This document shows, piece by piece, positions 23,811 through 43,815 of a stretch of DNA of 64,000 nt. The stretch covers positions 146,563 through 210,562 of the IMG/VR virus record IMGVR_UViG_3300010965_000001; one strand, written 5' to 3'. Made by a program: the position numbers and the translations under genes. The notes below the pieces were generated by a model. It worked only from the letters and a program-made list of their open reading frames with translations. It had not been told where the DNA came from and made no database searches. The first letter of the stretch is position 1. Every line of letters starts with the position of its first letter. Source of the DNA: a virus (taxonomy: Duplodnaviria > Caudoviricetes).

Positions 23811-24193
23811 GGTGGACTAGGAGGGGTTCGAACCCTCGTGTTGAACAAACACCAATTAAAAGACTACATGCTTAGTTTGATTCTGCGGAACGTCATAAAC
23901 TTGTAAGAATCTAACAAGATACAAGAAAATCTATTCTGCTTTTGAATGGTACAGATAAACCATTTGTATCTACAACGTCTTATTTTTTGTTCTGACTAAG
24001 GTAAATAAGAACCTTAGGCTGCGTACGCGTATTCGGCGTTCACTGCTTCACCCATGATGAACGCCATAGCATCATCAAATGTGAATGAAGATTTCTCTTC
24101 TGCGTTTATTTGTTTTGCACCTTTTAAAGAGTTTATTGCTCCCTCTGCATGCCTTCTAATCTATACTTATCCAGTCGATTCCATATCTAGCCC
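23811..24193 (-). ncRNA. ssrA: tmRNA
   Basis: 5' GGGCTAG pairs with 3' CTAGTCC-A (G3:U70); T arm GAGGG-TTCGAAC-CCCTC; resume context AATAAAC-GCA; tag ORF 24014-24103 ends YAYAA*. Confidence 0.95.
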
Positions 24194-28097: not shown

Positions 28098-28451
28098 TTA
28101 CTTATAATCGAACGGAATCCTGAGACTTCTAATTCCAGCATCATCGAAGGTGTGTTGCATACTTTGCGCTCCGACGGGATTAAAACTGTGAATGATGATT
28201 CTCTTAGGGAGTTTATCAGCAGGCAACGTAGTGATGAATTTAGCAACTTCGTGTCCACTCACCTCATCACTTGGGCAATACACATTCCCACCTAAGTCAT
28301 GGTCAAGAGAAACCAAATCGAACGGAGAATGCTCAGTTAACACTTTTATTGCATCTTCCGCTGTCTCCGCTTCAAACCATTCACAACCAATAAAATTTGG
28401 TTTTGCCTTTTTAAGACGAATTTTATCATCGTCCAAGAAAAATACTTTCAT
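28098..28451 (-). CDS. Cyclic-phosphate-processing receiver domain protein
   Basis: 117 aa; FLDDD, SLDHDLG, G.EVAKFI, IIHSFNPVG. Confidence 0.75.
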   Translation of the reverse strand: MKVFFLDDDKIRLKKAKPNFIGCEWFEAETAEDAIKVLTEHSPFDLVSLDHDLGGNVYCPSDEVSGHEVAKFITTLPADKLPKRIIIHSFNPVGAQSMQHTFDDAGIRSLRIPFDYK

Positions 28452-32549: not shown

Positions 32550-32710
32550 TCAGTCACTTCCTTAGATTTTAACCACTTAAAATACATTTCCAACCAATCT
32601 CCAGACGTATGTTCATCTTTCCACGATGTTTCATCCATAAATTGGCTGATGAGGTTTTCCATGTGACATTGAAATTCGACCATTCCCATTTCTTCGTTAG
32701 TCTGCTCCAT
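32546..32710 (-). CDS. Hypothetical protein
   Basis: 54 aa from MEQTNE; overlaps both neighbours. Confidence 0.5.
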
Positions 32711-33240
32711 GACCTGCCATTTTCTTTTCCTTACCACGGCAAACATGGTCACTTGCATAACTTGCTGCAGGCGAGTCAGGCTTTGCGTATGCATCGAAAC
32801 CCATACTCTGAATATATCCCATAGCCTGCTTGTGGATAACATTGCTTTCGAAGTTTTCATTTGGGTTTACATCCAAGTGAACTTCAAATGCGGTGATTTT
32901 CTTATTATCAAACAAATCAGAATCAGTTAAAATGGACGCAATATCAACTACTCTGTAAACTTCATCCCAAAGACGATTCTTTAACCTATCTCCCTTTGCC
33001 TTACCGTAAATCTTAACATTGTTATCACGCGAAAAGACAACGTGTGCACCACGACCAACCTTGTAGATACAAACAACTGTTACATATGTTGCGGCGTCAA
33101 AACGACGGGGCTGACTGTCACATCCTACGTAAATTTTAAATTCAGAAGTAAGTTCATCCTTACGAATGTATTCTTTAATATACTCCGCGATGTTTGGAAT
33201 CTTCGTTCCCTCTACCGTTTCCCATTTGAATTCTCGCATA
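32697..33240 (-). CDS. YkuK/DUF458 RNase H-like protein
   Basis: YVGCDSQ, RL..EV, EVHLDVN, KP.S.AAS.A.DH; start moved to MREFKW (AAGGAG RBS). Confidence 0.8.
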
Positions 33241-33266
33241 ACCTTACTCCTTTGTTTTGTTAGTTG

Positions 33267-33341
33267 TCGGAGTGACAGGATTCGAACCTGCGACCTCATG
33301 GTCCCAAACCACGCGCTCTACCAAACTGAGACTACACTCCG
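33267..33341 (-). tRNA. tRNA-Pro(UGG)
   Basis: C1:G72; loop TTTGGGA. Confidence 0.93.
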
Positions 33342-33574
33342 ATATATTTACCTTTTAGTGCATTAAAACTTTCTAAATACAATGGTCCTTTACAATTGGG
33401 ACATCCATGAGAATAATATAATAGATACCAATTCTCATACAAACTGTCAACGAATCGAAATCTATGCTCATGGTTTATAAATGCTTTGCAATTGTAACAC
33501 CTTATCAGTGGAGCATTTCCAGCATTTATAATTCTAACACAACGTTCTCTAAATTCTTTATATGATAGAGTCAT
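33332..33574 (-). CDS. Small Zn-finger protein (paralog 3)
   Basis: MTLSYKEF...CYNC...CPNC; stop codon lies inside tRNA-Pro. Confidence 0.6.
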   Translation of the reverse strand: MTLSYKEFRERCVRIINAGNAPLIRCYNCKAFINHEHRFRFVDSLYENWYLLYYSHGCPNCKGPLYLESFNALKGKYIGV

Positions 33575-33591
33575 AATCATTTTGTTTATTG

Positions 33592-33666
33592 TCGGGATAG
33601 AGAGACTTGAACTCTCACGATACCTTCGCCCCAAACGAAGTGGCTTGCCAATTAGCCCACATCCCG
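33592..33666 (-). tRNA. tRNA-Pro(UGG), second copy
   Basis: CTTCG-TTTGGGG-CGAAG. Confidence 0.88.
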
Positions 33667-33668
33667 TA

Positions 33669-33896
33669 TTAAAATGCCCTTACAAACTTGTCACCACGTT
33701 CATCTTTAGCACATTCTAAATACTTTTGTGAATTACATCTAACACATTTACGAATATAGTTATAATTATATAACATATGGAAATCTCCACCAACCTTTAT
33801 CCACGTTCCACAATAATAACACTTTAATATTGGTATGTGACGTGCTTTTCTAATTCGGTCAATTCTATCACAAAATTCTTCATAAGATAGTGTCAT
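33669..33896 (-). CDS. Small Zn-finger protein (paralog 2)
   Basis: MTLSYEEF...CYYC...CVRC. Confidence 0.6.
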   Translation of the reverse strand: MTLSYEEFCDRIDRIRKARHIPILKCYYCGTWIKVGGDFHMLYNYNYIRKCVRCNSQKYLECAKDERGDKFVRAF

Positions 33897-34084
33897 CTTG
33901 GTTTTCCCGCAGTAAAACTTTTTAAATATAATTGAGAACCACACCGTTTGCATCCACGTTCATATCGAATATATCCACCAGCATTTTCATGTTGAATACA
34001 TTTATAACAGAATAACAGTGGTGCATGCTGTGCAAGACGTATTCTATTAATCCTGTCGTAATATTCATTAAAAGAAAGCATCAT
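33893..34084 (-). CDS. Small Zn-finger protein (paralog 1)
   Basis: MMLSFNEY...CYKC...CKRC. Confidence 0.6.
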   Translation of the reverse strand: MMLSFNEYYDRINRIRLAQHAPLLFCYKCIQHENAGGYIRYERGCKRCGSQLYLKSFTAGKPR

Positions 34085-34182
34085 AACATTTATCAATTTT
34101 AAAGGTAATCGACATTAGTATGTAACAACATAACTCGTGTAGTTAGAGGTTTGTCAGGATACTACTCCACAATTACCAATTG

Positions 34183-34260
34183 TACACACAGAAGGACTCG
34201 AACCTTCATTTTCAACCATTACCTATAGTCCCGCGTATCAGACGGGCTGGATATGTGTGC
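34183..34260 (-). tRNA. Rewired tRNA-Ile(GAU)
   Basis: GCACACA/TGTGTGT-A; CCCGT-CTGATAC-GCGGG only 7 nt after the acceptor strand; TAATGG after the anticodon arm; canonical T arm. Confidence 0.78.
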
Positions 34261-34267
34261 ATTGTTG

Positions 34268-34350
34268 CTCATTAGGTAGGATTCGAACCTACAGGGGCGT
34301 TAGCCGTCCGCTTAACAGGCGGGGGAGTTTACCAGTTCCTCTACTAATGA
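34268..34350 (-). tRNA. tRNA-Asn(GUU) with long variable arm
   Basis: Loop CTGTTAA; V arm GGC-TAAC-GCC; U1:A72, G73. Confidence 0.85.
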
Positions 34351-34364
34351 ATATAAATTTTTTG

Positions 34365-34446
34365 TGCATTCGGAAGGAGTCGAACCCTCGTTGGATTTCT
34401 CCACCGCTTAAGAGGCGGGTGCATAATGCCGTTCTGCCACGAATGC
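34365..34446 (-). tRNA. tRNA-Lys(CUU) with long variable arm
   Basis: Loop CTCTTAA; V arm GGA-GAAA-TCC. Confidence 0.85.
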
Positions 34447-34454
34447 TTGTTTTG

Positions 34455-34527
34455 TACACCCAGTAGGAGTCGAACCCACCTAATACAATTTAAAAGATTG
34501 TTACCTAAACCGCTCGGTCACGGGTGC
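34455..34527 (-). tRNA. tRNA-Lys(UUU)
   Basis: ACAAT-CTTTTAA-ATTGT. Confidence 0.9.
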
Positions 34528-34533
34528 GTGTTG

Positions 34534-34604
34534 TGCACCCACAGGGAATCGAACCCTGGTCAATTGATTAAAAGTCAACTGCTTTGCCACTAAGCTATGG
34601 ATGC
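34534..34604 (-). tRNA. tRNA-Lys(UUU), second copy
   Basis: GTTGA-CTTTTAA-TCAAT. Confidence 0.92.
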
Positions 34605-34642
34605 GTTTATTAACGTCACACCCACTACTTAGTGAATGCGAC

Positions 34643-34669
34643 CTACCGTTTAGTCATCTTCTTTTTCAT
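34643..34669 (-). CDS. Lys-rich mini-ORF MKKKMTKR
   Basis: AAGGAGA RBS; followed by a 12-bp hairpin (34615-34642). Confidence 0.4.
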   Translation of the reverse strand: MKKKMTKR

Positions 34670-34733
34670 TGTGTATATCTCCTTAATTGTCTTTCGCCCC
34701 GCTACCATAAGCAATATGCTTAATTTCTTGTTG

Positions 34734-34805
34734 AGCCCCAGATGGGAGTTGAACCCATGTCTCATCCTTACCAAAGACGCGTTCTACCGTTAGTACTACA
34801 AGGGC
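34734..34805 (-). tRNA. tRNA-Thr(GGU)
   Basis: CGTCT-TTGGTAA-GGATG. Confidence 0.88.
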
Positions 34806-34948
34806 AAATCTGTTAAAAATTTTGTGAGTTTCGGTGTCCTACGAAGTGCTCTGTTATTTTTCTTTTTATTAAAAACTGCACGTTCATTGGAATCTGCATA
34901 CTTATTTGTTGCCTTTGTAACAATCTTTTTATACAGTGCTTTTTGCAT
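34796..34948 (-). CDS. Small basic protein
   Basis: 50 aa MQKALYKK...TDLPL*; AAGGA RBS; stop inside tRNA-Thr. Confidence 0.4.
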   Translation of the reverse strand: MQKALYKKIVTKATNKYADSNERAVFNKKKNNRALRRTPKLTKFLTDLPL

Positions 34949-34967
34949 AAAAATCCTTTTTTGTTTG

Positions 34968-35038
34968 AGCCCACTATCGGAGTCGAGCCGATGTCACAAC
35001 TTTACAAGAGTCGCGTTTTACCGTTAAACTAAGCAGGC
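34968..35038 (-). tRNA. tRNA-Thr(UGU)
   Basis: CGACT-CTTGTAA-AGTTG. Confidence 0.88.
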
Positions 35039-35053
35039 ATGCTGTGTTACTTG

Positions 35054-35128
35054 TAGTGCGTACGGGATTCGAACCCGTGATACCTACCTTGAAAGGGTAG
35101 TGACTTAAGCCAGCTTGTCGAACGCACC
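35054..35128 (-). tRNA. tRNA-Glu(UUC)
   Basis: CTACC-CTTTCAA-GGTAG. Confidence 0.92.
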
Positions 35129-35133
35129 ATATA

Positions 35134-35279
35134 ATATTTTATAATAGGATTTTCACCTATACGGTCTACCTCTCTCCTAGCTGACCCACTTGGAATTTTA
35201 CTTCCGTGCCCGACTCGAACGGGGATGGGTGTGACCTCGATTCAGCTCTAGCGTCTAAATATTTCGCCATATAAAATAT
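35134..35279 (-). ncRNA. tRNA-scaffold RNA with a second T arm replacing the anticodon loop
   Basis: All-A/U closing stem, Leu/Ser-type D arm, outer T arm ATAGG-TGAAAAT-CCTAT, inner CCCG-TTCGAGT-CGGG. Confidence 0.6.
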
Positions 35280-35281
35280 TG

Positions 35282-35370
35282 CGGAAGAAAAGAGAATTGA
35301 ACTCTTAGGACACTTTCATGCCCGACTGTTTAGCAAACAGGTCCGACTAACCAATATTCGGCTTTCTTCC
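35282..35370 (-). tRNA. tRNA-Ser(GCU)
   Basis: Loop TTGCTAA; long V arm; G73. Confidence 0.92.
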
Positions 35371-35376
35371 ATGTTG

Positions 35377-35445
35377 TACGGTATTTTGGTTCCGACCCAA
35401 ATCAACAAGTTTATGATACTCGTTTCGTCTCCTGACGTATACCGC
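35377..35445 (-). tRNA. Minimal tRNA-Met-like RNA (CAU)
   Basis: GCGGTAT/ATACCGT; mini D arm GTC-AGGA-GAC; AACGAGT-ATCATAA-ACTTGTT; T arm TTTGG-GTCGGAA-CCAAA. Confidence 0.6.
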
Positions 35446-35461
35446 GTTAAAACTAATTTGG

Positions 35462-35528
35462 TAGCGGGGCTGGGAACCGCCCCCAGGTAATCTCGGTTAT
35501 GAGCCGGACTGGCACTCTGCTCCCCGCA
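35462..35528 (-). tRNA. Short initiator-like tRNA-Met(CAU), non-canonical D and T loops
   Basis: U1xU72; loop CTCATAA; D arm GCA-GAG-TGC; T loop GGCGGTT. Confidence 0.7.
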
Positions 35529-35541
35529 ATATATTCTTTTG

Positions 35542-35614
35542 TAGCGCGAACGGGATTCGAACCCGTGGTCTGAAGGTTATGAGCCTACTGAGATGACCTC
35601 TTCTCTATCGCGCA
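35542..35614 (-). tRNA. tRNA-fMet(CAU)
   Basis: U1xU72 mismatch; loop CTCATAA; canonical T arm. Confidence 0.9.
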
Positions 35615-35626
35615 GTAATTTCTTTG

Positions 35627-35697
35627 AGCACCGTATCGGTGTCGAACCGATGACCGTAGTTTGGAAGACTACTATTTTACCGTTAAACTAACAGTGC
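35627..35697 (-). tRNA. tRNA-Gly(UCC)
   Basis: GTAGT-CTTCCAA-ACTAC; U73. Confidence 0.92.
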
Positions 35698-35715
35698 GTT
35701 ATTTCTGACACTTAT

Positions 35716-35744
35716 AATATACAACTAATTTTCATCAATGTCAA
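35716..35744 (-). promoter_or_regulatory. Sigma70-type promoter
   Basis: TTGACA-N17-TATATT. Confidence 0.8.
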
Positions 35745-35931
35745 GTTTTTCTTTTCTACGTATTCTTTTTTTACATCGTTCGTATGGAATACCATCTTCC
35801 ACCTTATAATCTGTTTCTATTACATTTTCACAATCCCAACATTCGTGACCCCAATGTCCACCTGCGTTAAACCAATTCCAACAAACATAGATAGATTTAC
35901 AGTACGGACATTTACGAAATCGATTTTTCAT
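35725..35931 (-). CDS. Small Zn-ribbon protein
   Basis: CPYC...CWDC; AAGGG RBS. Confidence 0.6.
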   Translation of the reverse strand: MKNRFRKCPYCKSIYVCWNWFNAGGHWGHECWDCENVIETDYKVEDGIPYERCKKRIRRKEKLDIDEN

Positions 35932-35932
35932 A

Positions 35933-36232
35933 TTATCCCTTGTAGAATTTGTTGAGAATTTCTTCTATCTCACCACTTGCCAACATTGTTCCACATTCAC
36001 AAATGGCTTGAATGTCATATTGATGGTCAATTCCTCCATCTGGATTCCACAATGGAGTTTCTTTAATACGTAACTTCCATGTGTGTACATGTTTTTCTTT
36101 TTTATCATGTCCCATAATAGAACCCTTTATAAATATAAAAGAATAAAAAATACCCACGATTCTGTATAACGGATACCATTTCTCTATTGGCCGCAACCCG
36201 CTCTCATCAATAACAGGAAATGAGTATCTCAA
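35933..36232 (-). CDS. Hypothetical protein (start uncertain)
   Basis: 99 aa ORF. Confidence 0.4.
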   Translation of the reverse strand: MRYSFPVIDESGLRPIEKWYPLYRIVGIFYSFIFIKGSIMGHDKKEKHVHTWKLRIKETPLWNPDGGIDHQYDIQAICECGTMLASGEIEEILNKFYKG

Positions 36233-36383
36233 GCTGTTTGCGTTGCACGCTCTCTTGTAGTTAAACGATTTTCATCAATTCATCGTCTCCGATGGTTGAG
36301 ATAATCTCCTACTCTTCCTGTTGCGTGTCGTGAGGTTCCTCACATCCTTTTACAAGGGTAGTGCGGTATCCTATTTTATTCTT

Positions 36384-36456
36384 GTTGCTCGACAGGCTTC
36401 GAACCTGTAGTCTCTCGGGTCGCAGCCGAGCATTTTACCAATTAAACTACAAGCCA
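36384..36456 (-). tRNA. tRNA with GCG anticodon (Arg) on a His-like body
   Basis: CTCGG-CTGCGAC-CCGAG; C73; U20. Confidence 0.75.
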
Positions 36457-36635
36457 ATTTTCATTCCACCAGCCATAATAACTTGTAATGCCATTTGGTG
36501 ATGTTCTGGTTTTATTTTTGAAAAATCAAATACCGCGTCTACTTCTGCACCATTTCCAAAATCAACATATCCTTTTACCATGACTTTTGGTTCTGTCATT
36601 ACTATACAAATATTATCAATGTCTGCCGTAATCAT
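36447..36635 (-). CDS. Hypothetical protein
   Basis: 62 aa from MITADI; stop inside the downstream tRNA. Confidence 0.5.
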   Translation of the reverse strand: MITADIDNICIVMTEPKVMVKGYVDFGNGAEVDAVFDFSKIKPEHHQMALQVIMAGGMKIGL

Positions 36636-36658
36636 AATATAACCTTTATGTTGTTCTG

Positions 36659-36749
36659 CGGAAAAGAGAGGATTCGAACCCCCAACCCAGCTTTCGCCAA
36701 GAACTGTTTTCGAGACAGTAGCGGTCATCCAGTTACGCTTTACTCTTCC
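36659..36749 (-). tRNA. tRNA-Ser(CGA)
   Basis: ACTGT-CTCGAAA-ACAGT; long V arm. Confidence 0.92.
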
Positions 36750-36876
36750 ATTTTCGTTCCCATACAGAAACCAATATTGCAAGTGGAAATGCAAACGGTA
36801 ACAAAAATAATGCTTCTCTACTTGTATATGGTGAACATAAATATTTTATGTTATTCCAAAAATTTCTAAATCCCAT
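36733..36876 (-). CDS. Small membrane peptide
   Basis: 47 aa from MGFRNFW; one TM; stop inside tRNA-Ser(CGA). Confidence 0.45.
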   Translation of the reverse strand: MGFRNFWNNIKYLCSPYTSREALFLLPFAFPLAILVSVWERKWKSKA

Positions 36877-36899
36877 GATATAACCTTTTTGTTGTTCTG

Positions 36900-36987
36900 C
36901 GGAAAGTGAGGGGCTCGAACCCGTCAACTGATTTTTCAACCAGCATCTGATTTCCAATCAGACTCCTTGCCAATTCGGTTACTTTCC
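36900..36987 (-). tRNA. tRNA-Ser(GGA)
   Basis: TCTGA-TTGGAAA-TCAGA; long V arm. Confidence 0.9.
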
Positions 36988-36988
36988 A

Positions 36989-37111
36989 TTATTTTTTACT
37001 ATCCCACAATGCCCAAATCAATCCAACTAATACGATAGCGGGTATTGTCCACCAAGGGTCTTCTTTGTTAATCTTAATCTTATTCCAAAATTCTTTTAAC
37101 AGTTCATTCAT
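36989..37111 (-). CDS. Small membrane peptide
   Basis: 40 aa from MNELLKEFW; one TM. Confidence 0.45.
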   Translation of the reverse strand: MNELLKEFWNKIKINKEDPWWTIPAIVLVGLIWALWDSKK

Positions 37112-37134
37112 TGAAAACCTTTGTTTGTGTATTG

Positions 37135-37217
37135 CGGAAGATATAGGAGTCGAACCTATACATCCTTTCGGACGGCAGTTTTCAAGACTGCTGCAATAGC
37201 CATTATGCGAATCTTCC
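37135..37217 (-). tRNA. tRNA-Ser(UGA)
   Basis: GCAGT-CTTGAAA-ACTGC; V arm TCC-GAAA-GGA. Confidence 0.93.
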
Positions 37218-37219
37218 AT

Positions 37220-37363
37220 TTAACAATTTGTTTTATACTTTCTCACACGACCTTTCCATCTTCGAATACAAATCAAACATGCTTTACTTTCTTTTATCAT
37301 TTTGCGTATTTTTAACTTCTTGTAGACAGAAGAATTTGTCGTATTTTTCAAAGTATCAGTCAT
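37220..37363 (-). CDS. Small basic peptide with CxxC
   Basis: 47 aa from MTDTLK. Confidence 0.35.
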   Translation of the reverse strand: MTDTLKNTTNSSVYKKLKIRKMIKESKACLICIRRWKGRVRKYKTNC

Positions 37364-37494
37364 AGTATATTCAGTTATGCGATAGTGAACAGTAATTAAA
37401 CCTTTACCTCCATAACTCGTTTTGAGTGAGTCAGCGCTCTGATTTGAACAGGCGATTCGTAGCGTGCAAGGCTCGCGAGGTTTCTCATATTTTG

Positions 37495-37574
37495 TAGACT
37501 TGATAGGATTTGAACCTACATTTTCAGCTCCAGTTACGATTAAATGTTTCGAAGACATACTCGGCTACAAGTCC
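37495..37574 (-). tRNA. Rewired tRNA-Arg(UCG)
   Basis: GGACTTG/CAAGTCT-A; ATGT-CTTCGAA-ACAT; TAACTGGA after the anticodon arm; canonical T arm. Confidence 0.78.
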
Positions 37575-37586
37575 ATATAAAATTAA

Positions 37587-37785
37587 ACCCAATTGATGCC
37601 GTATTCATCTCTGCGGGGTTGCAATGCCTTACGTAAAGAATGTCTGATAGCACCATCGCCTTTACTACCAAACTGCTCTCGGCTACTGAACTATAAAACC
37701 GTCAACCTACACATTAAAGTGCCCAGCCTCCCGATAACGATTATGTGATGACCAGGAATCGTTAGTTCATTTACATCTCTTGGGT
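37587..37785 (-). ncRNA. Unassigned structured RNA, ~200 nt
   Basis: ACCCAA/TTGGGT, GATG/CATC, TGAACTA/TAGTTCA, AACGATT/AATCGTT. Confidence 0.5.
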
Positions 37786-37789
37786 ATTG

Positions 37790-37860
37790 AGCATCGTATC
37801 GGTTACGCTCCGATTTTTGTAACTTGGCAAGTTACCATTCTACTATTAAATTAACGATGC
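37790..37860 (-). tRNA. tRNA-Gly(GCC) lacking D-loop GG and T-loop TTC
   Basis: GTAAC-TTGCCAA-GTTAC; D loop AATAGTA; T loop AGCGTAA; all stems intact. Confidence 0.75.
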
Positions 37861-37914
37861 ATTTGTGATTCGAAAATTAAAATTCATTATACTTATACAT
37901 ATAAGGAGAATACT

Positions 37915-38514
37915 ATGAAAATACCAATTATATGTGATTATTGTGGAAATCCGTCAACAAAATTAAAATATAGCATTACACGATATAAAAATCATTTCTG
38001 CTCCAATACCTGTGCTTCCATGTTTCATAGGAATAAAATTGAAGTAGAATGTAAATTTTGTGGAAATAAATTTCTAAAATTTGCAAATCAACTAAAAAAA
38101 CATCCAAACAGTTTTTGTAATAAATCATGTGCTGCTAAATACAACAACACACATAAAACACATGGGTCATCTCGTTCTAAACTTGAAGTGTGGTTGGAAA
38201 ACGAACTTATTACATTATATCCAACTTTGGATTTTCATTTCAATCGTAAAGATGCCATCAATTCTGAACTCGACATTTATATTCCATCGTTAAAACTTGC
38301 ATTTGAACTAAATGGAATCTTTCATTTTGAACCAATTTTTAGTGAATCTGGGTTAAAGCGAACCAAAGAAAACGATTCAAAAAAATTTAAATTATGCCAT
38401 GACAATGGAATCAGTTTATGTGTAATCGACACTTCAAAACAAAAATATTTTAAAGAACAAACTTCATTACAATATCTAAAAATAATTACAGATATTATTA
38501 ATATGAAAGTTTAA
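37915..38514 (+). mobile_element. Free-standing Vsr/DUF559-like endonuclease (copy 2)
   Basis: Paralog of 27430-28056 (ELDIYIPSLKLAFELNGIFH; DTSKQKYFKEQTSLQYLKIITDII identical); shared 32-bp upstream sequence. Confidence 0.7.
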
Positions 38515-38519
38515 ATATT

Positions 38520-38590
38520 TGCGGTGTGTTGTCATTTACACTATTAATTCCGATTTCGAAATTAAATTGAATTTGAGCCAATATCTCCGC
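38520..38590 (-). pseudogene. Possible decayed tRNA-Ser
   Basis: Starts GCGGAG, ends CCGC, contains TTCGAAA; other stems lost. Confidence 0.25.
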
Positions 38591-38735
38591 ATTTACAACT
38601 AAATTGTGTCCGTATGCTATCCAGTACATCACGATTTTCAATCTATCATTTAGGTGCTCATGCATTAGCACAGTAATGGATTTCACGTTGTTCTGAAAAT
38701 CGAGAGGAATCGAACCTCTTCAACGGACTGTTATT

Positions 38736-38764
38736 AATATACAAAATCTTTTTATCAATGTCAA
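38736..38764 (-). promoter_or_regulatory. Sigma70-type promoter
   Basis: TTGACA-N17-TATATT; followed by an isolated T arm (AGAGG-TTCGATT-CCTCT, about 38703-38719). Confidence 0.8.
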
Positions 38765-38815
38765 CAACTTATTCTGTGATTAAATTGGAGTCGAAATTTA
38801 ATTTCCAGATACTTG

Positions 38816-38888
38816 TGCGACAGACTTGAGTTGAACAAGTTCCTGTGGTTTTTCAGACCACCGTGCATACCACCTACACCACTCTCGC
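38816..38888 (-). tRNA. tRNA-Phe(GAA)
   Basis: GTGGT-CTGAAAA-ACCAC. Confidence 0.88.
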
Positions 38889-39096
38889 ATAAAAACGTAG
38901 GAATCACGGGTTGTACATGCACGGGTATTTCACTCCCCACTATTTCCCGTTGCCCAGTTTAATTGCAACCTATTATATTCACTGTTCGTATACTCTTCTT
39001 GCCGCTAAGCAAGTACCCTCTACTTTAAAATGTATTCGTGAATATCCACTTTACCATACATTGGGATTTTCGTGTTTTAATAGGTATACAGTATAT

Positions 39097-39387
39097 CTAT
39101 AAAATCTCTACTACCTTTCCATACACACTGCGTGTCCATCCATTTATACCACCTCTGTTATTTCCAATCAAACAACCTTTGTGTAAGTCCGTTGCTTTAA
39201 CTAAGTGCGTATAATAATTTCCATGAACTTTGCAATATACAATGTCTCCAGTCTTAACTTCTAAGAATGTTACAGGAGCGAGTTTATGCTCTTGACCAGA
39301 CTTAATTAGTGGAACCATTGAATTACCTTTTTCACTGGTGATAAACGTCTCACCATTTTGTAACTTCTCTAATTTGTAGTTTCTCAT
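39097..39387 (-). CDS. S24/S26 peptidase-like protein
   Basis: KGNSMVPLIKSG, GDIVYCKVHG...HLVK. Confidence 0.7.
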   Translation of the reverse strand: MRNYKLEKLQNGETFITSEKGNSMVPLIKSGQEHKLAPVTFLEVKTGDIVYCKVHGNYYTHLVKATDLHKGCLIGNNRGGINGWTRSVYGKVVEIL

Positions 39388-39389
39388 AG

Positions 39390-39471
39390 TGCAGTTACAG
39401 AGACTCGAACTCTGACGGATTACTCCACGGGCTTCTTAGACCCGCATGTTTACCAATTACATCATAACTGC
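39390..39471 (-). tRNA. tRNA-Leu(AAG)
   Basis: CGGGT-CTAAGAA-GCCCG; V arm. Confidence 0.9.
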
Positions 39472-39480
39472 GTTTTGTTG

Positions 39481-39563
39481 TGTATCGCCAGGGAATCGAA
39501 CCCCGCGTGTCCTTCCGAACGGGTGGGTTACAGCCACCTGCCACACCTTGTAGCCTGCGATAC
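39481..39563 (-). tRNA. tRNA-Tyr(GUA)
   Basis: GGTGG-CTGTAAC-CCACC; V arm. Confidence 0.88.
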
Positions 39564-39575
39564 ATATTATTACTT

Positions 39576-39647
39576 GACATCCAGAGAGCCTTGAACTCTC
39601 ATTCCCCACTGAAATGTGAGTTCTTAGTCCGTTTAGAAGATAGATGT
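39576..39647 (-). tRNA. tRNA-like RNA with 6-nt anticodon loop (Glu-like)
   Basis: ACATCTA/TGGATGT; CTCAC-ATTTCA-GTGGG; GAGAG-TTCAAGG-CTCTC. Confidence 0.65.
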
Positions 39648-39684
39648 TCCGTGTTATTCACCTGCCCGATGAGGTAACACATTC

Positions 39685-39915
39685 TTAGAATCTTGAAGTA
39701 TATCTCATTGTTTCTGTTTCGATAGCCTTCTTAATCCATTTCATAAAATAAATTGCTTTTTCATCACGAAGGAGAACACCAGTTCCAACTTCTTCAATTG
39801 GAATAGGAAATTCATACATATCATTCTCAACCGAAATTGAGTAATACACTTTTCCTTCTTGATAAAAGGAAAATTGTGCCGTGTTGTTTTCTATAATTTG
39901 TTTAATTGTATGCAT
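39685..39915 (-). CDS. Conserved phage hypothetical protein
   Basis: 76 aa from MHTIKQ; G..YY...FPIPI.EVG.G.LL..EKAIYFMKWI. Confidence 0.65.
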   Translation of the reverse strand: MHTIKQIIENNTAQFSFYQEGKVYYSISVENDMYEFPIPIEEVGTGVLLRDEKAIYFMKWIKKAIETETMRYTSRF

Positions 39916-39933
39916 TGTTTTTCTTTCTGTTTG

Positions 39934-40011
39934 TAGGAAGAGATGGATTCGAACCATCAGTCTCCGAGTCAATGATTCCCCGGCGTTTTGCGCTTATTAA
40001 ACTATCTGCCT
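39934..40011 (-). tRNA. tRNA-like RNA with 10-nt anticodon loop (Trp-like body)
   Basis: AGGCAGA/TCTTCCT; CCGGG-GAATCATTGA-CTCGG; canonical T arm. Confidence 0.65.
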
Positions 40012-40017
40012 ATGTTG

Positions 40018-40088
40018 CGCGTCCTACAGGAGTCGAACCCGTGTGAGGAGATTTGGAGTTTCCCATGTTTCCGTTACATCAAGGACGC
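40018..40088 (-). tRNA. tRNA-Trp(CCA)
   Basis: Loop CTCCAAA; G73. Confidence 0.9.
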
Positions 40089-40429
40089 ATTTTTACGTGA
40101 CGTATTTTATGACAATTTGCACAAATTAAATCACATTTTTCAATTTCAGTGTTAAAATATGTTTTACCACTATGAATTGCACCAGACACGGACGATAATT
40201 TTTTAGACGGCTCTCTGTGATGGAACTCTGCAATTTCTGGATGCTCATTAAATGATACATTACAGTCCATACAAAATTGTGTTTTTTTCCATTCTATTAA
40301 TTCTTCTTTTTTCTTTCGTCTGACATCTAACTGCGAATCAATTTGATGTTTTTTATTGCGGTAATACCAATCTCTACGGTATTGTCGCATTTTATCTATA
40401 TTTTCTTCTTTCCATTCTAATGTCGCCAT
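40079..40429 (-). mobile_element. Free-standing HNH endonuclease
   Basis: CMDC...EFHHREP...EKCDLICANCHKIRH; GGAG RBS; stop inside tRNA-Trp. Confidence 0.8.
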
Positions 40430-40959: not shown

Positions 40960-41274
40960 TTATTCAATGTATTTATAAAGTGGTAAAAATTTCACGAACT
41001 TTGGAAAATTTTCTCTTGGTAAAAGAACACACGCTACTTCTTGATTACCAAGAGAACTTTCCGTAATTATAACAGACCGTTCAAGATTTTTACATTGTTC
41101 AAATGCTTCGTTAGAAACTTTACATACGACTTTTTTGAACGAATTCTGCATCCATTCGATGACTTCTGCATCTTCTTTATTCTTGTGGTATGCCGACAAT
41201 GCCGCATGCGCGCATACAACAGGAACATAATTTGAAGGAACGTCATCTCTAACTACAATATACATTTTAGACAT
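40960..41274 (-). CDS. Peptidyl-tRNA hydrolase, PTH2-like
   Basis: KMYIVVR.D....V.CAHA, W....FKKVVCKV. Confidence 0.72.
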   Translation of the reverse strand: MSKMYIVVRDDVPSNYVPVVCAHAALSAYHKNKEDAEVIEWMQNSFKKVVCKVSNEAFEQCKNLERSVIITESSLGNQEVACVLLPRENFPKFVKFLPLYKYIE

Positions 41275-42071
41275 TATTGTTTCTTTCGTTTACCAATATC
41301 TTTAACAACCGCTTTCGTATGGAACTTCCTAATGTCAACATCTTGATGACCCTTGAGAAATTCTACAATCCCTTTTAATACACCTACCAACGATTGAACG
41401 TCTGCGATTGCCGAATGCCAATTATCAACATTGACTTCAAGTGCGGTTGATAATTGACCAAGATTAGAATTAATTCTACCGTTTCTTGTCAATGCTCCCA
41501 ACATTTTTGTTATACCTTCATCACCAGACTTTTCTAATGACTGTAATGCCGGGGCGAAATACAACTGTGCAATTTTCAAAGAATCAAGAACTCTAAATCG
41601 GTTCATTCGTATTCCATAGTGTTGCCCACGTTGGTTGATATATTTCATATCAAATGATGCGTTGTGAGCGATTAATAATGGATTCTCAAATGTTCCTAAC
41701 CAACCATTAAACTCTTGTAAAACTTGTTGTTCACCTTTGAATTTTGCGTGACGTTCACCATACTTCGTCATCTTCATAATGTCACGCATCTTCATCGAAC
41801 CTTTTTTCGGAGGTTCTGTATCTTGAACCTTCATCTTTGCCTGTGCGTCTTTTCTAAGACTTACTTTTTCATGGAAGATACCAACTTGTTCAAAGGTAGT
41901 TCCATCAAATGCGATTGCGGCAACTTCTGTTACTTGTGTATCAAGATTTTGCGGTTTCAATCCAAGTGTTTCTGTGTCAAAGAATATTAACGTCTGTCCT
42001 TCGAACGCCAAAAACTTTTCTAATACTTCCTTGATTGATAGTCCGTATATCTTTTTTTCCTGTAATTTCAT
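41274..42071 (-). CDS. DEDDh 3'-5' exonuclease (DnaQ/RNase T-like)
   Basis: FFDTETLG, AHNASFD, HSAIAD. Confidence 0.88.
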   Translation of the reverse strand: MKLQEKKIYGLSIKEVLEKFLAFEGQTLIFFDTETLGLKPQNLDTQVTEVAAIAFDGTTFEQVGIFHEKVSLRKDAQAKMKVQDTEPPKKGSMKMRDIMKMTKYGERHAKFKGEQQVLQEFNGWLGTFENPLLIAHNASFDMKYINQRGQHYGIRMNRFRVLDSLKIAQLYFAPALQSLEKSGDEGITKMLGALTRNGRINSNLGQLSTALEVNVDNWHSAIADVQSLVGVLKGIVEFLKGHQDVDIRKFHTKAVVKDIGKRKKQ

Positions 42072-42955: not shown

Positions 42956-43815
42956 TTAAAAGGTTGAGAGATTACACCTTCTACGCATTTCCTTTTCGTA
43001 GATTATAGTGACCTTGCGGGTCAGTTTCCTACTTTCTCCACCAGCGTTCAGCTCGAGTAGAAATGCATGACTTCCGTTGTTTTTAACGGTGACGGTACCG
43101 ATATGTATGAGCCTACTCAATCCTTGTCAATTCTCCCTGCCTTGCGAGCAGTTAATCCTTGCGGGGAATAGATGCAGACTTGAATTAAATTCCTACGCCT
43201 TGCGGGTTTCAGAACTCTCCATTCCTTTCGGTGGAGATTTAAGCCATTTTTGTTCTCATACATGACCACGACTTTGCTGTTTTTAATTGTCTTGGGATTT
43301 GAACCCAATCTTTAGTTCCATATACTAACGCTCAACCATTTGAGCTAAGACTGTGCAACTCACAAAAGACGTGCGTGGTCAGTGGTTCCATTCTCTTTTG
43401 GAAAACGATATGCCACACGCCCTGTATCTTTCGTCTGCTCGACTACTCAACGGATTTTCAAGATTTTGGTGCTTATGGAACAACCACACCAACACCAACC
43501 TCTTTCAATCTAAATAGAAGCCCTTATTTTGCATCACTCGGACAACTACTCTCCCCTTCATTTCTCGTTCATCGTCTCGTTTGGTATCTGCTTACTCGGC
43601 ACCACCCGCTAGTCCAGTCCTACGGAGTTACCCTCGGTCTGTTCGCAGCGAAACTTCTGACATACTTCCAGCAGGATTAGTGGCTGAAAGACTCCGAAAC
43701 TCGGTTTGCATAAGTGACCAATTGAGATTGGCGACGCCCTGTGAGCGGGTTAAGTCTTTTACCATATTACTACGGCTTATCTTCTCCCTTGCGGGAATGG
43801 ATGTCATACCACCCA
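42956..43815 (-). ncRNA. Large ornate ncRNA, GOLLD-like (~860 nt), with embedded tRNA-like module
   Basis: GC-richer, no credible CDS, five cGCAAg tetraloop hairpins, tandem promoters upstream, T-run end, flanks the tRNA array; family inferred from size and context only. Confidence 0.6.

Follow-up and report, generated by a model that had tools for sequence, protein, structure and literature searches.

Five small genes in the tRNA array of a T4-like phage end on stop codons inside the next tRNA gene, probably as a by-product of tight packing

Five small open reading frames (ORFs) in the transfer RNA (tRNA) array of a T4-like phage were found to take their stop codon from the tRNA gene that follows them, within the first 17 bases of that gene. 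The array lies in the final 64 kb (positions 146,563 to 210,562) of the single 210,562-bp virus record IMGVR_UViG_3300010965_000001; this 64-kb stretch is referred to as the window, and its coordinates are used throughout. The phage was classified as T4-like from its Gp23 capsid gene, which matched Pfam PF07068 with an E-value of 4e-77. The nearest annotated capsids, at 58-60% identity, were those of Microcystis phage Mel-JY01, Flavobacterium phage immuto and the uncultured 484-kb phage LR756508. In the whole genome, ARAGORN called 34 tRNAs and one transfer-messenger RNA (tmRNA), every one of them on the minus strand and within the segment at 23.8-43.4 kb of the window, and Rfam added two tRNAs and a GOLLD RNA to this set. 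All five ORF-tRNA pairs are located on the minus strand with the ORF upstream of its tRNA. The ORFs, with lengths in amino acids (aa), and the tRNA genes which they enter are the following.

33332..33574, minus strand: Zn-ribbon-like ORF, 80 aa, CxxC...CxxC, with two in-window paralogues and a near-relative in ENA
33266..33341, minus strand: tRNA-Pro(TGG), called by ARAGORN, Rfam 56.2 bits; positions 8-10 are TAG (33332-33334)
34796..34948, minus strand: basic ORF, 50 aa, net charge +11, pI 10.7; its stop is positions 8-10 of tRNA-Thr(GGU)
34733..34805, minus strand: tRNA-Thr(GGT), called by ARAGORN, Rfam 50.2 bits; positions 8-10 are TAG (34796-34798)
36447..36635, minus strand: acidic ORF, 62 aa, of a small uncatalogued family; its stop is positions 8-10 of tRNA-Arg(GCG)
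36384..36456, minus strand: tRNA-Arg(GCG), called by ARAGORN, Rfam 53.5 bits; positions 8-10 are TAG (36447-36449)
36733..36876, minus strand: ORF of 47 aa with one hydrophobic stretch (membrane peptide); its stop TAA is in the D arm of tRNA-Ser(CGA)
36657..36749, minus strand: type II tRNA-Ser(CGA); folds at minimum energy into a cloverleaf whose variable arm is long and whose anticodon loop is CUCGAAA
40079..40441, minus strand: HNH endonuclease gene, 116-120 aa; its stop TGA is positions 8-10 of tRNA-Trp
40017..40088, minus strand: tRNA-Trp(CCA), called by ARAGORN, Rfam 47.8 bits; positions 8-10 are TGA (40079-40081)

The original prediction, made from the DNA letters and an ORF list, had placed four of the stops at tRNA positions 8-10 (tRNA-Pro, tRNA-Thr(GGU), a GCG tRNA and tRNA-Trp) and the fifth in the D arm of tRNA-Ser(CGA). 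ARAGORN, the ORF list and a frame walk, in which each frame was followed from the 5' end of every tRNA, agreed on the four overlaps at positions 8-10, and the walk bore out the coordinates of all five. The four overlapped tRNAs called by ARAGORN scored 47.8-56.2 bits in Rfam. tRNA-Ser(CGA) was called neither by ARAGORN nor by Rfam at the gathering score and was recovered by folding only; the fold gave a type-II cloverleaf with the anticodon CGA, in which the TAA at 36733-36735 occupies positions 15-17. The longest ORFs listed at two of the junctions, of 100 aa and 115 aa, use TTG starts and begin within the upstream tRNAs, and the plausible genes there have 80 aa (ATG at 33574) and 62 aa (ATG at 36635). 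Plausible sizes of the five ORFs are thus 80, 50, 62, 116-120 and 47 aa. The final three sense codons of the Zn-ribbon ORF, together with its TAG, fall within positions 1-10 of tRNA-Pro. In all five cases the stop codon belongs to the mature tRNA and lies on the 3' side of the RNase P site. Since the ORF and tRNA genes overlap, each pair must share a transcript, and the promoter scan revealed no strong promoter-like site between any overlapping ORF and its tRNA.

The number of overlaps was compared with the number that packing alone would give. Eighteen gene-to-tRNA (or gene-to-tmRNA) junctions were listed in this phage, and a junction was termed tight when the gap was at most 10 nucleotides (nt) or when the genes overlapped. 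Twelve of the 18 were tight, with gaps of 9, 5, 4, 10, 2, 1 and 2 nt and overlaps of 10, 10, 10, 10 and 17 nt. In 20 of the 37 tRNAs of this phage the bases U8-R9-G10 form a stop triplet (TAG, TGA or TAA), and TAA or TAG is also frequent in the D loop. With random frames at the 12 tight junctions, 2.2 stops at positions 8-10 are expected and four were observed (binomial P 0.16). An early in-frame stop inside the tRNA, no later than positions 15-17, was found at six of the 12 tight junctions, compared to 4.2 expected, and five of these six ORFs use it. Four of the five overlaps are in one frame, which gave a P of 0.045 against an expectation of one third, and a P of 0.20 when the frames were weighted by the frequency of early tRNA-internal stops. 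The count of overlaps fits tight packing and chance frames, and the pattern is therefore not beyond chance. The reservation attached to the original prediction, that any ORF entering a tRNA has a fair chance of meeting a stop at positions 8-10, therefore holds. At the other six tight junctions, which have no early in-frame tRNA stop, the ORF kept its own TAA in six out of six cases; read-through would continue for 23-229 nt into the tRNA. This pattern is the one predicted by neutral loss of a redundant stop.

The choice of stop codon points to the tRNA as its source. In the whole genome, TAG terminates none of the 80 ORFs of at least 250 aa, 2 of the 142 of at least 150 aa and 7 of the 218 of at least 100 aa. 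Of the four stops at tRNA positions 8-10, three are nevertheless TAG (P about 1e-4 compared to the genome background), which shows that the tRNA, and not the gene, determines them. The overlaps themselves are real and precisely placed, and it is the tRNAs that impose the borrowed stops. TAG stops cluster in the small genes of the tRNA region, at 39097, 35725 and 23400 in addition to the three borrowed ones. Recoding of TAG was considered and rejected: reading TAG as sense gains little coding length, less than for TGA or TAA, and no tRNA with a CTA anticodon was found. TAG is a rare stop in this phage, not a recoded codon.

Two of the overlapping ORFs have paralogues which also precede a tRNA gene and serve as control junctions.

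33669..33896, minus strand: Zn-ribbon paralogue of 75 aa, ending on its own TAA 2 nt ahead of a second tRNA-Pro (33591-33666)
36989..37111, minus strand: paralogous membrane-peptide ORF, 40 aa; own TAA 1 nt before tRNA-Ser(GGA) (36899-36987)

In both pairs (Zn-ribbon/Pro and membrane peptide/Ser), the stop is located 1-2 nt ahead of the tRNA in one copy and within the tRNA in the other. The 75-aa Zn-ribbon paralogue is in the same frame relative to its tRNA as the 80-aa copy, and positions 8-10 of the second tRNA-Pro are TGG. The divergence between the duplicated ORF-tRNA modules was too high for the mutational event to be reconstructed from a DNA alignment. Outside the genome, stop placement could be compared in one ENA protein (P0002/P0005), which is 96% identical to the 80-aa Zn-ribbon ORF, has the same length and ends in ...HIGM, compared to ...YIGV here; the end is thus the same in this relative, and the in-genome paralogues do not keep the overlap. 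Searches for relatives by megablast and tblastn in the phage collection gave unrelated tRNAs or no match. The IMG/VR scans gave no relatives but one HNH locus at 28% identity, and the JGI metagenome scans gave none, with motif matches of 16-18 residues only in the genome-contig scan.

Overlaps of the same kind were observed in other phages. In T5 (RefSeq NC_005859), T5.057/tRNA-Met, hegD/tRNA-Gln2, hegC/tRNA-Ser2 and T5.069/tRNA-Asn overlap by 6, 23, 14 and 24 nt, respectively. These are four overlaps in 12 junctions, and six more T5 junctions have gaps of 0-15 nt. hegC and hegD are HNH genes. Many T5-like phages lack T5.069 (NC_005859, 34006-34524), and phage DaisyDussoix has it annotated as a putative homing endonuclease; therefore, at least that T5 overlap stems from a mobile gene. 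T5 is similar to the phage described here in that small ORFs and HNH genes lie between same-strand tRNAs with spacers of 0-15 nt, and in that about one third of the junctions have their stop in the next tRNA (4/12 in T5 and 5/18 here). In contrast to the situation here, the T5 overlaps are deeper, at 6-24 nt, and include none at positions 8-10, and T5 has no tmRNA match over the cut-off. No sequence relationship between T5 and the ORFs of this phage was found. In S-CBWM1 the annotated gp162 stops at positions 8-10 of tRNA-Thr. In LR756508.1, the closest capsid relative that is rich in tRNAs, a very basic ORF of 50 aa (437719-437871, net charge +13) has its TAG at positions 8-10 of tRNA-Glu(UUC). 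Except for T5 and the S-CBWM1 case, the comparator junctions were obtained with an ORF and codon-score pipeline and not from curated annotation. With this pipeline no overlap was found in Aeh1 and Bxz1, and a single overlap of 2 nt was found in KVP40. Overlaps were present at 7 of the 54 pooled comparator junctions and at 5 of the 18 here (Fisher P 0.16), and T5 taken alone did not differ from this phage.

The explanation that we favour, with a probability of roughly 70%, is that extreme packing of the phage tRNA array gave rise to the overlaps as a by-product, together with insertion of mobile genes as in T5. Small genes, some of them mobile, would have been squeezed in among the tRNA genes, leaving spacers of 0-10 nt. 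An in-frame tRNA stop triplet a few codons downstream would make the gene's own stop redundant and release it from selection, while the borrowed stop would be kept by selection on the tRNA. The reading frame could then slide to the tRNA-internal stop, and the non-conserved tail would grow by 3-5 residues dictated by the tRNA. Once RNase P had cut, the upstream fragment would have no stop, and late ribosomes would need tmRNA or another form of rescue; the share of protein affected would be set by a race between translation, tRNA folding and cleavage. This need for rescue would be a tolerated cost and not a tuned switch, and would be common to neighbouring genes that stop shortly before a tRNA. 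Seven other ORFs stop 1-10 nt before a tRNA or tmRNA, and their fate would probably be near-identical, as the cleaved 3' end would be unprotected and would be open to 3' exonucleases that act on the RNase P product. Furthermore, a ribosome terminating 1-10 nt before a tRNA would be expected to cover the 5' arm of that tRNA. In mitochondria, tRNA excision sets the 3' end of the upstream mRNA (tRNA punctuation), the coding regions abut or overlap the tRNAs, and incomplete stops are completed by polyadenylation. We know of no such completion mechanism for bacterial or phage mRNAs.

The HNH overlap was most likely left behind when a homing-endonuclease gene inserted straight before a tRNA, as in T5. 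The HNH gene sits between the tRNA-Asn/His group and tRNA-Trp and overlaps the latter by 10 nt, compared to 14 nt for hegC and 23 nt for hegD of T5. SegB of T4 is a homing endonuclease encoded in a tRNA cluster and recognizes a conserved T-loop sequence of tRNA genes (PMC2330249), and this accounts for the presence of homing-endonuclease genes of this kind beside tRNAs. The HNH gene is similar to segB in being a nuclease gene among tRNA genes, but SegB is a GIY-YIG enzyme.

Three observations weigh against packing and insertion as a full account. Seven of the 12 tight junctions are in the frame of positions 8-10 (P 0.066). Stops at positions 8-10 were found at 4 of the 18 junctions here and at 2 of the 54 pooled comparator junctions (Fisher P 0.03, with a crude ORF pipeline for the comparators). 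Finally, the sole near-relative, the ENA protein with 96% identity, ends at the identical position. None of these was judged to reach significance, and the two tRNA-Pro junctions are not independent.

A regulatory function was the core of the original prediction. RNase P cuts tRNA precursors at position +1, and non-stop mRNAs are rescued by tmRNA and Pth. On this basis it was proposed that the overlaps are selected: RNase P would remove the stop, ribosomes would stall, a tmRNA of phage or host would tag the product for degradation, and the proteins would be limited or timed in the manner of ArfA. The two phage-encoded factors that the proposal invoked are present, as determined with ARAGORN, Rfam and Pfam.

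23811..24193, minus strand: phage tmRNA, tag ending in ...EYAYAA, called by ARAGORN; Rfam tmRNA 111.4 bits
40960..41274, minus strand: PTH2-type peptidyl-tRNA hydrolase, 104 aa; Pfam PF01981, E 2.2e-8, 34.7 bits compared to a cut-off of 23

The first part of the proposal stands as logic. With the stops 3' of the RNase P site and a common transcript for ORF and tRNA, maturation of the tRNA would leave the ORF stop-less. The novelty of that part did not stand, as the non-stop consequence of an overlap between a coding sequence (CDS) and a tRNA is already known as an idea for bacteria. Hudson, Lau and Williams (2014) predicted that a bacterial CDS ending in a mature t(m)RNA gives a non-stop mRNA after maturation, found 250 overlaps with an upstream CDS in a set of 115,660 t(m)RNA genes, and also considered smpB-ssrA of Carsonella (PMC4131195). 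For T4, no proposal that tRNA trimming removes stop codons was found in PMC2330249 or PMC13096335. The bacterial cases are similar to those described here, with an upstream same-strand CDS ending inside the mature t(m)RNA and a prediction made from sequence in both studies. The bacterial overlaps are, however, very rare (250/115,660), whereas 5 of about 37 tRNAs are overlapped here, a frequency about 60-fold higher.

The published concept and the mild excess at positions 8-10 over the comparators (P 0.03) speak for an ArfA-like limiter, as does the presence of tmRNA and PTH2 in the phage. Several results speak against it. The overlap count fits packing and chance, and the overlap is not conserved between the paralogous modules. 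Adjacent genes ending 1-10 nt upstream of a tRNA would be expected to lose their stops to 3' trimming as well. The five ORFs are functionally unrelated: one encodes an HNH nuclease, one a Zn-ribbon protein, one a membrane peptide and one a basic peptide, and the fifth is the acidic member of the 62-aa family. Among five comparators, tmRNA was found over the Rfam cut-off in Bxz1, which has no overlap, and in LR756508, which has an overlap at 1 of 22 junctions. No tmRNA match over the cut-off was found in T5 (four overlaps), S-CBWM1 (one overlap) or KVP40. As overlaps occur without tmRNA in T5 and S-CBWM1, and tmRNA occurs without overlap in Bxz1, overlaps and tmRNA are not associated in these five comparators.

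The best-known stop-less messages also differ from the situation described here. arfA (by an RNase III site) and brfA (by an internal terminator) are expressed from deliberately stop-less mRNAs and are repressed by tmRNA. The similarity is that RNA processing would remove the stop and expose the product to tmRNA tagging; the difference is that arfA and brfA each encode one rescue factor, while five unrelated proteins are concerned here. Comparison with Pfam, NCBIfam and PDB sequences gave no similarity of the five ORFs to ArfA or BrfA. With counts that fit packing, paralogues that differ and comparators without a tmRNA link, a limiter tied to the phage tmRNA and PTH2 found no support and is considered unlikely, and the sequence evidence does not favour a regulatory device. 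PTH2 and the neighbouring RNA-handling genes make up a general toolkit that is not specifically linked with the five ORFs. The RNA-handling genes are scattered through the array on the minus strand (28098-28451, 32697-33239 and 40960-42071) and comprise cREC_REC (cyclic-phosphate processing receiver, PF20274), RNaseH_like (PF04308), PTH2 and, immediately upstream of PTH2, an RNase T-like exonuclease.

Borrowed stops would have no meaning if some of the five ORFs were not genes and had nothing to terminate. Codon scores were calculated as log-odds trained on the long ORFs of the phage and compared to those of non-coding controls (n=2000). The 50-, 62- and 47-aa ORFs and the HNH gene scored above at least 99% of the controls and the Zn-ribbon ORF above 98%. 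An AAGGAG-like motif, typical before the long genes of this phage, was present upstream of four of the five. Three of the ORFs are called by IMG exactly as given here; the 62-aa ORF is also present in IMG, where a longer start makes it a protein of 93 aa (P0009).

The HNH gene matched phrog_3106 and phrog_2255 with an E-value of 1.2e-17 and has the C-terminal motif ...CANCHKIRH; its start is probably the ATG at 40429, which has GGAG ahead of it. The 62-aa ORF (codon score +28.6) has 11 distant homologues among metagenome proteins (HMMER, P0010-P0020), some with a C-terminal WW or basic tail. The family shares the core motif TEPK...VDAxFDFSKLPPEHHxMALQ, and in the alignment the conserved core stops short of the tRNA-encoded tail, with C-terminal tails of 3 to about 40 aa. 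The basic 50-aa ORF scored +18.8, which was reached by 0 of the 2000 controls, and has AAAGGA upstream of its ATG. The 47-aa ORF scored +9.1, has AAAGG upstream of its ATG and is a weak paralogue of the 40-aa ORF at 36989-37111 (FWN-IK motif, pairwise E 0.046).

The case against gene status is strongest for the Zn-ribbon ORF, whose codon score of -0.5 is marginal (1.9% of the controls reach it) and which has no Shine-Dalgarno-like (SD-like) motif before its start. Two paralogues just upstream with invariant cysteines, and the 96%-identical ENA relative, argue that it is a gene nonetheless. Outside the genome no homologues of the 47- and 50-aa ORFs were found, and at 37% G+C chance alone is estimated to give a few open frames of about 50 codons in every 111 tRNA frames. 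In view of the codon scores, the PHROG match, the 11 homologues of the 62-aa ORF and the IMG calls, it is improbable that some of the five are not genes. All five are probable genes, the Zn-ribbon and 47-aa ORFs being the least secure.

A last alternative concerns the basic 50-aa ORF, which could be a phage ribosome-rescue factor of ArfA/BrfA design, with a stop-less message and a product that accumulates only if trans-translation is saturated. It is tiny, very basic (net +11) and without a stop of its own before the tRNA, it combines a strong codon score with an SD-like motif, and LR756508 also has a basic 50-aa ORF that stops at tRNA positions 8-10. Against this, no similarity was found to ArfA (Pfam PF03889, with Pfam searched at E <=0.1), to NCBIfam models (E <=1) or to PDB sequences (E <=10), the word-index search and Atlas gave no homologues, nor did PHROGs, and no similarity was detectable between the two basic ORFs. 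Small basic ORFs are moreover common in phages, and another one in this array (about 43 aa, 37220-37351) keeps its own stop, which leaves the rescue factor a most improbable reading. The wider form of the idea, in which the basic ORF would be a rescue or translation factor gated ArfA-style by tmRNA capacity and, more broadly, RNase P cleavage would switch arrays between tRNA and upstream protein, is likewise very improbable.

Packing and insertion remain the preferred explanation, and the finding is at present mainly a lesson for annotation: genes in phage tRNA clusters may legitimately end in the next tRNA, and gene callers and curators should not trim them. If it is true that maturation strips the stops from a quarter of the array genes, phage tRNA arrays would continually generate stalled ribosomes, and such ribosomes could help to explain the tmRNA, peptidyl-tRNA hydrolase and RNA-repair genes of some large phages. 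An ORF-tRNA junction placed in a reporter would be a cheap test system for the competition between RNase P and translation.

Further features of the array were observed. Two tRNAs on the minus strand have no ARAGORN call, at 39934-40011 and 37495-37574, with Rfam scores of 45.8 and 34.8 bits. Scanning for promoters and terminators gave no more sites than shuffled sequence, although three promoter-like matches at 11/12 stood out. Two sigma-70-like promoters near consensus (TTGACA-17-TATATT, 11/12) are located at 35716-35744 and 38736-38764 on the minus strand; the former lies directly before the tRNA-Gly(UCC)/Met run, which points to separate promoters for some of the tRNA runs. A Lys-rich mini-ORF of eight codons (MKKKMTKR) follows a strong AAGGAG at about 34640-34670 (minus strand), about 40 nt upstream of three tRNA-Lys genes in succession. 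The GOLLD RNA (42961-43425, minus strand; Rfam RF02032, 180.5 bits, full length) is found at the upstream end of the tRNA array and contains a tRNA-like element, called by ARAGORN as His-atg at 43285-43354. A start-side counterpart to the stop-side overlaps was also observed. The ATG of a 96-aa ORF with a good codon score (39097-39387, minus strand) lies 1 nt past the 3' end of tRNA-Leu(AAG) (39389-39471), and any ribosome-binding site of this ORF would fall within the acceptor and T arm of that tRNA.

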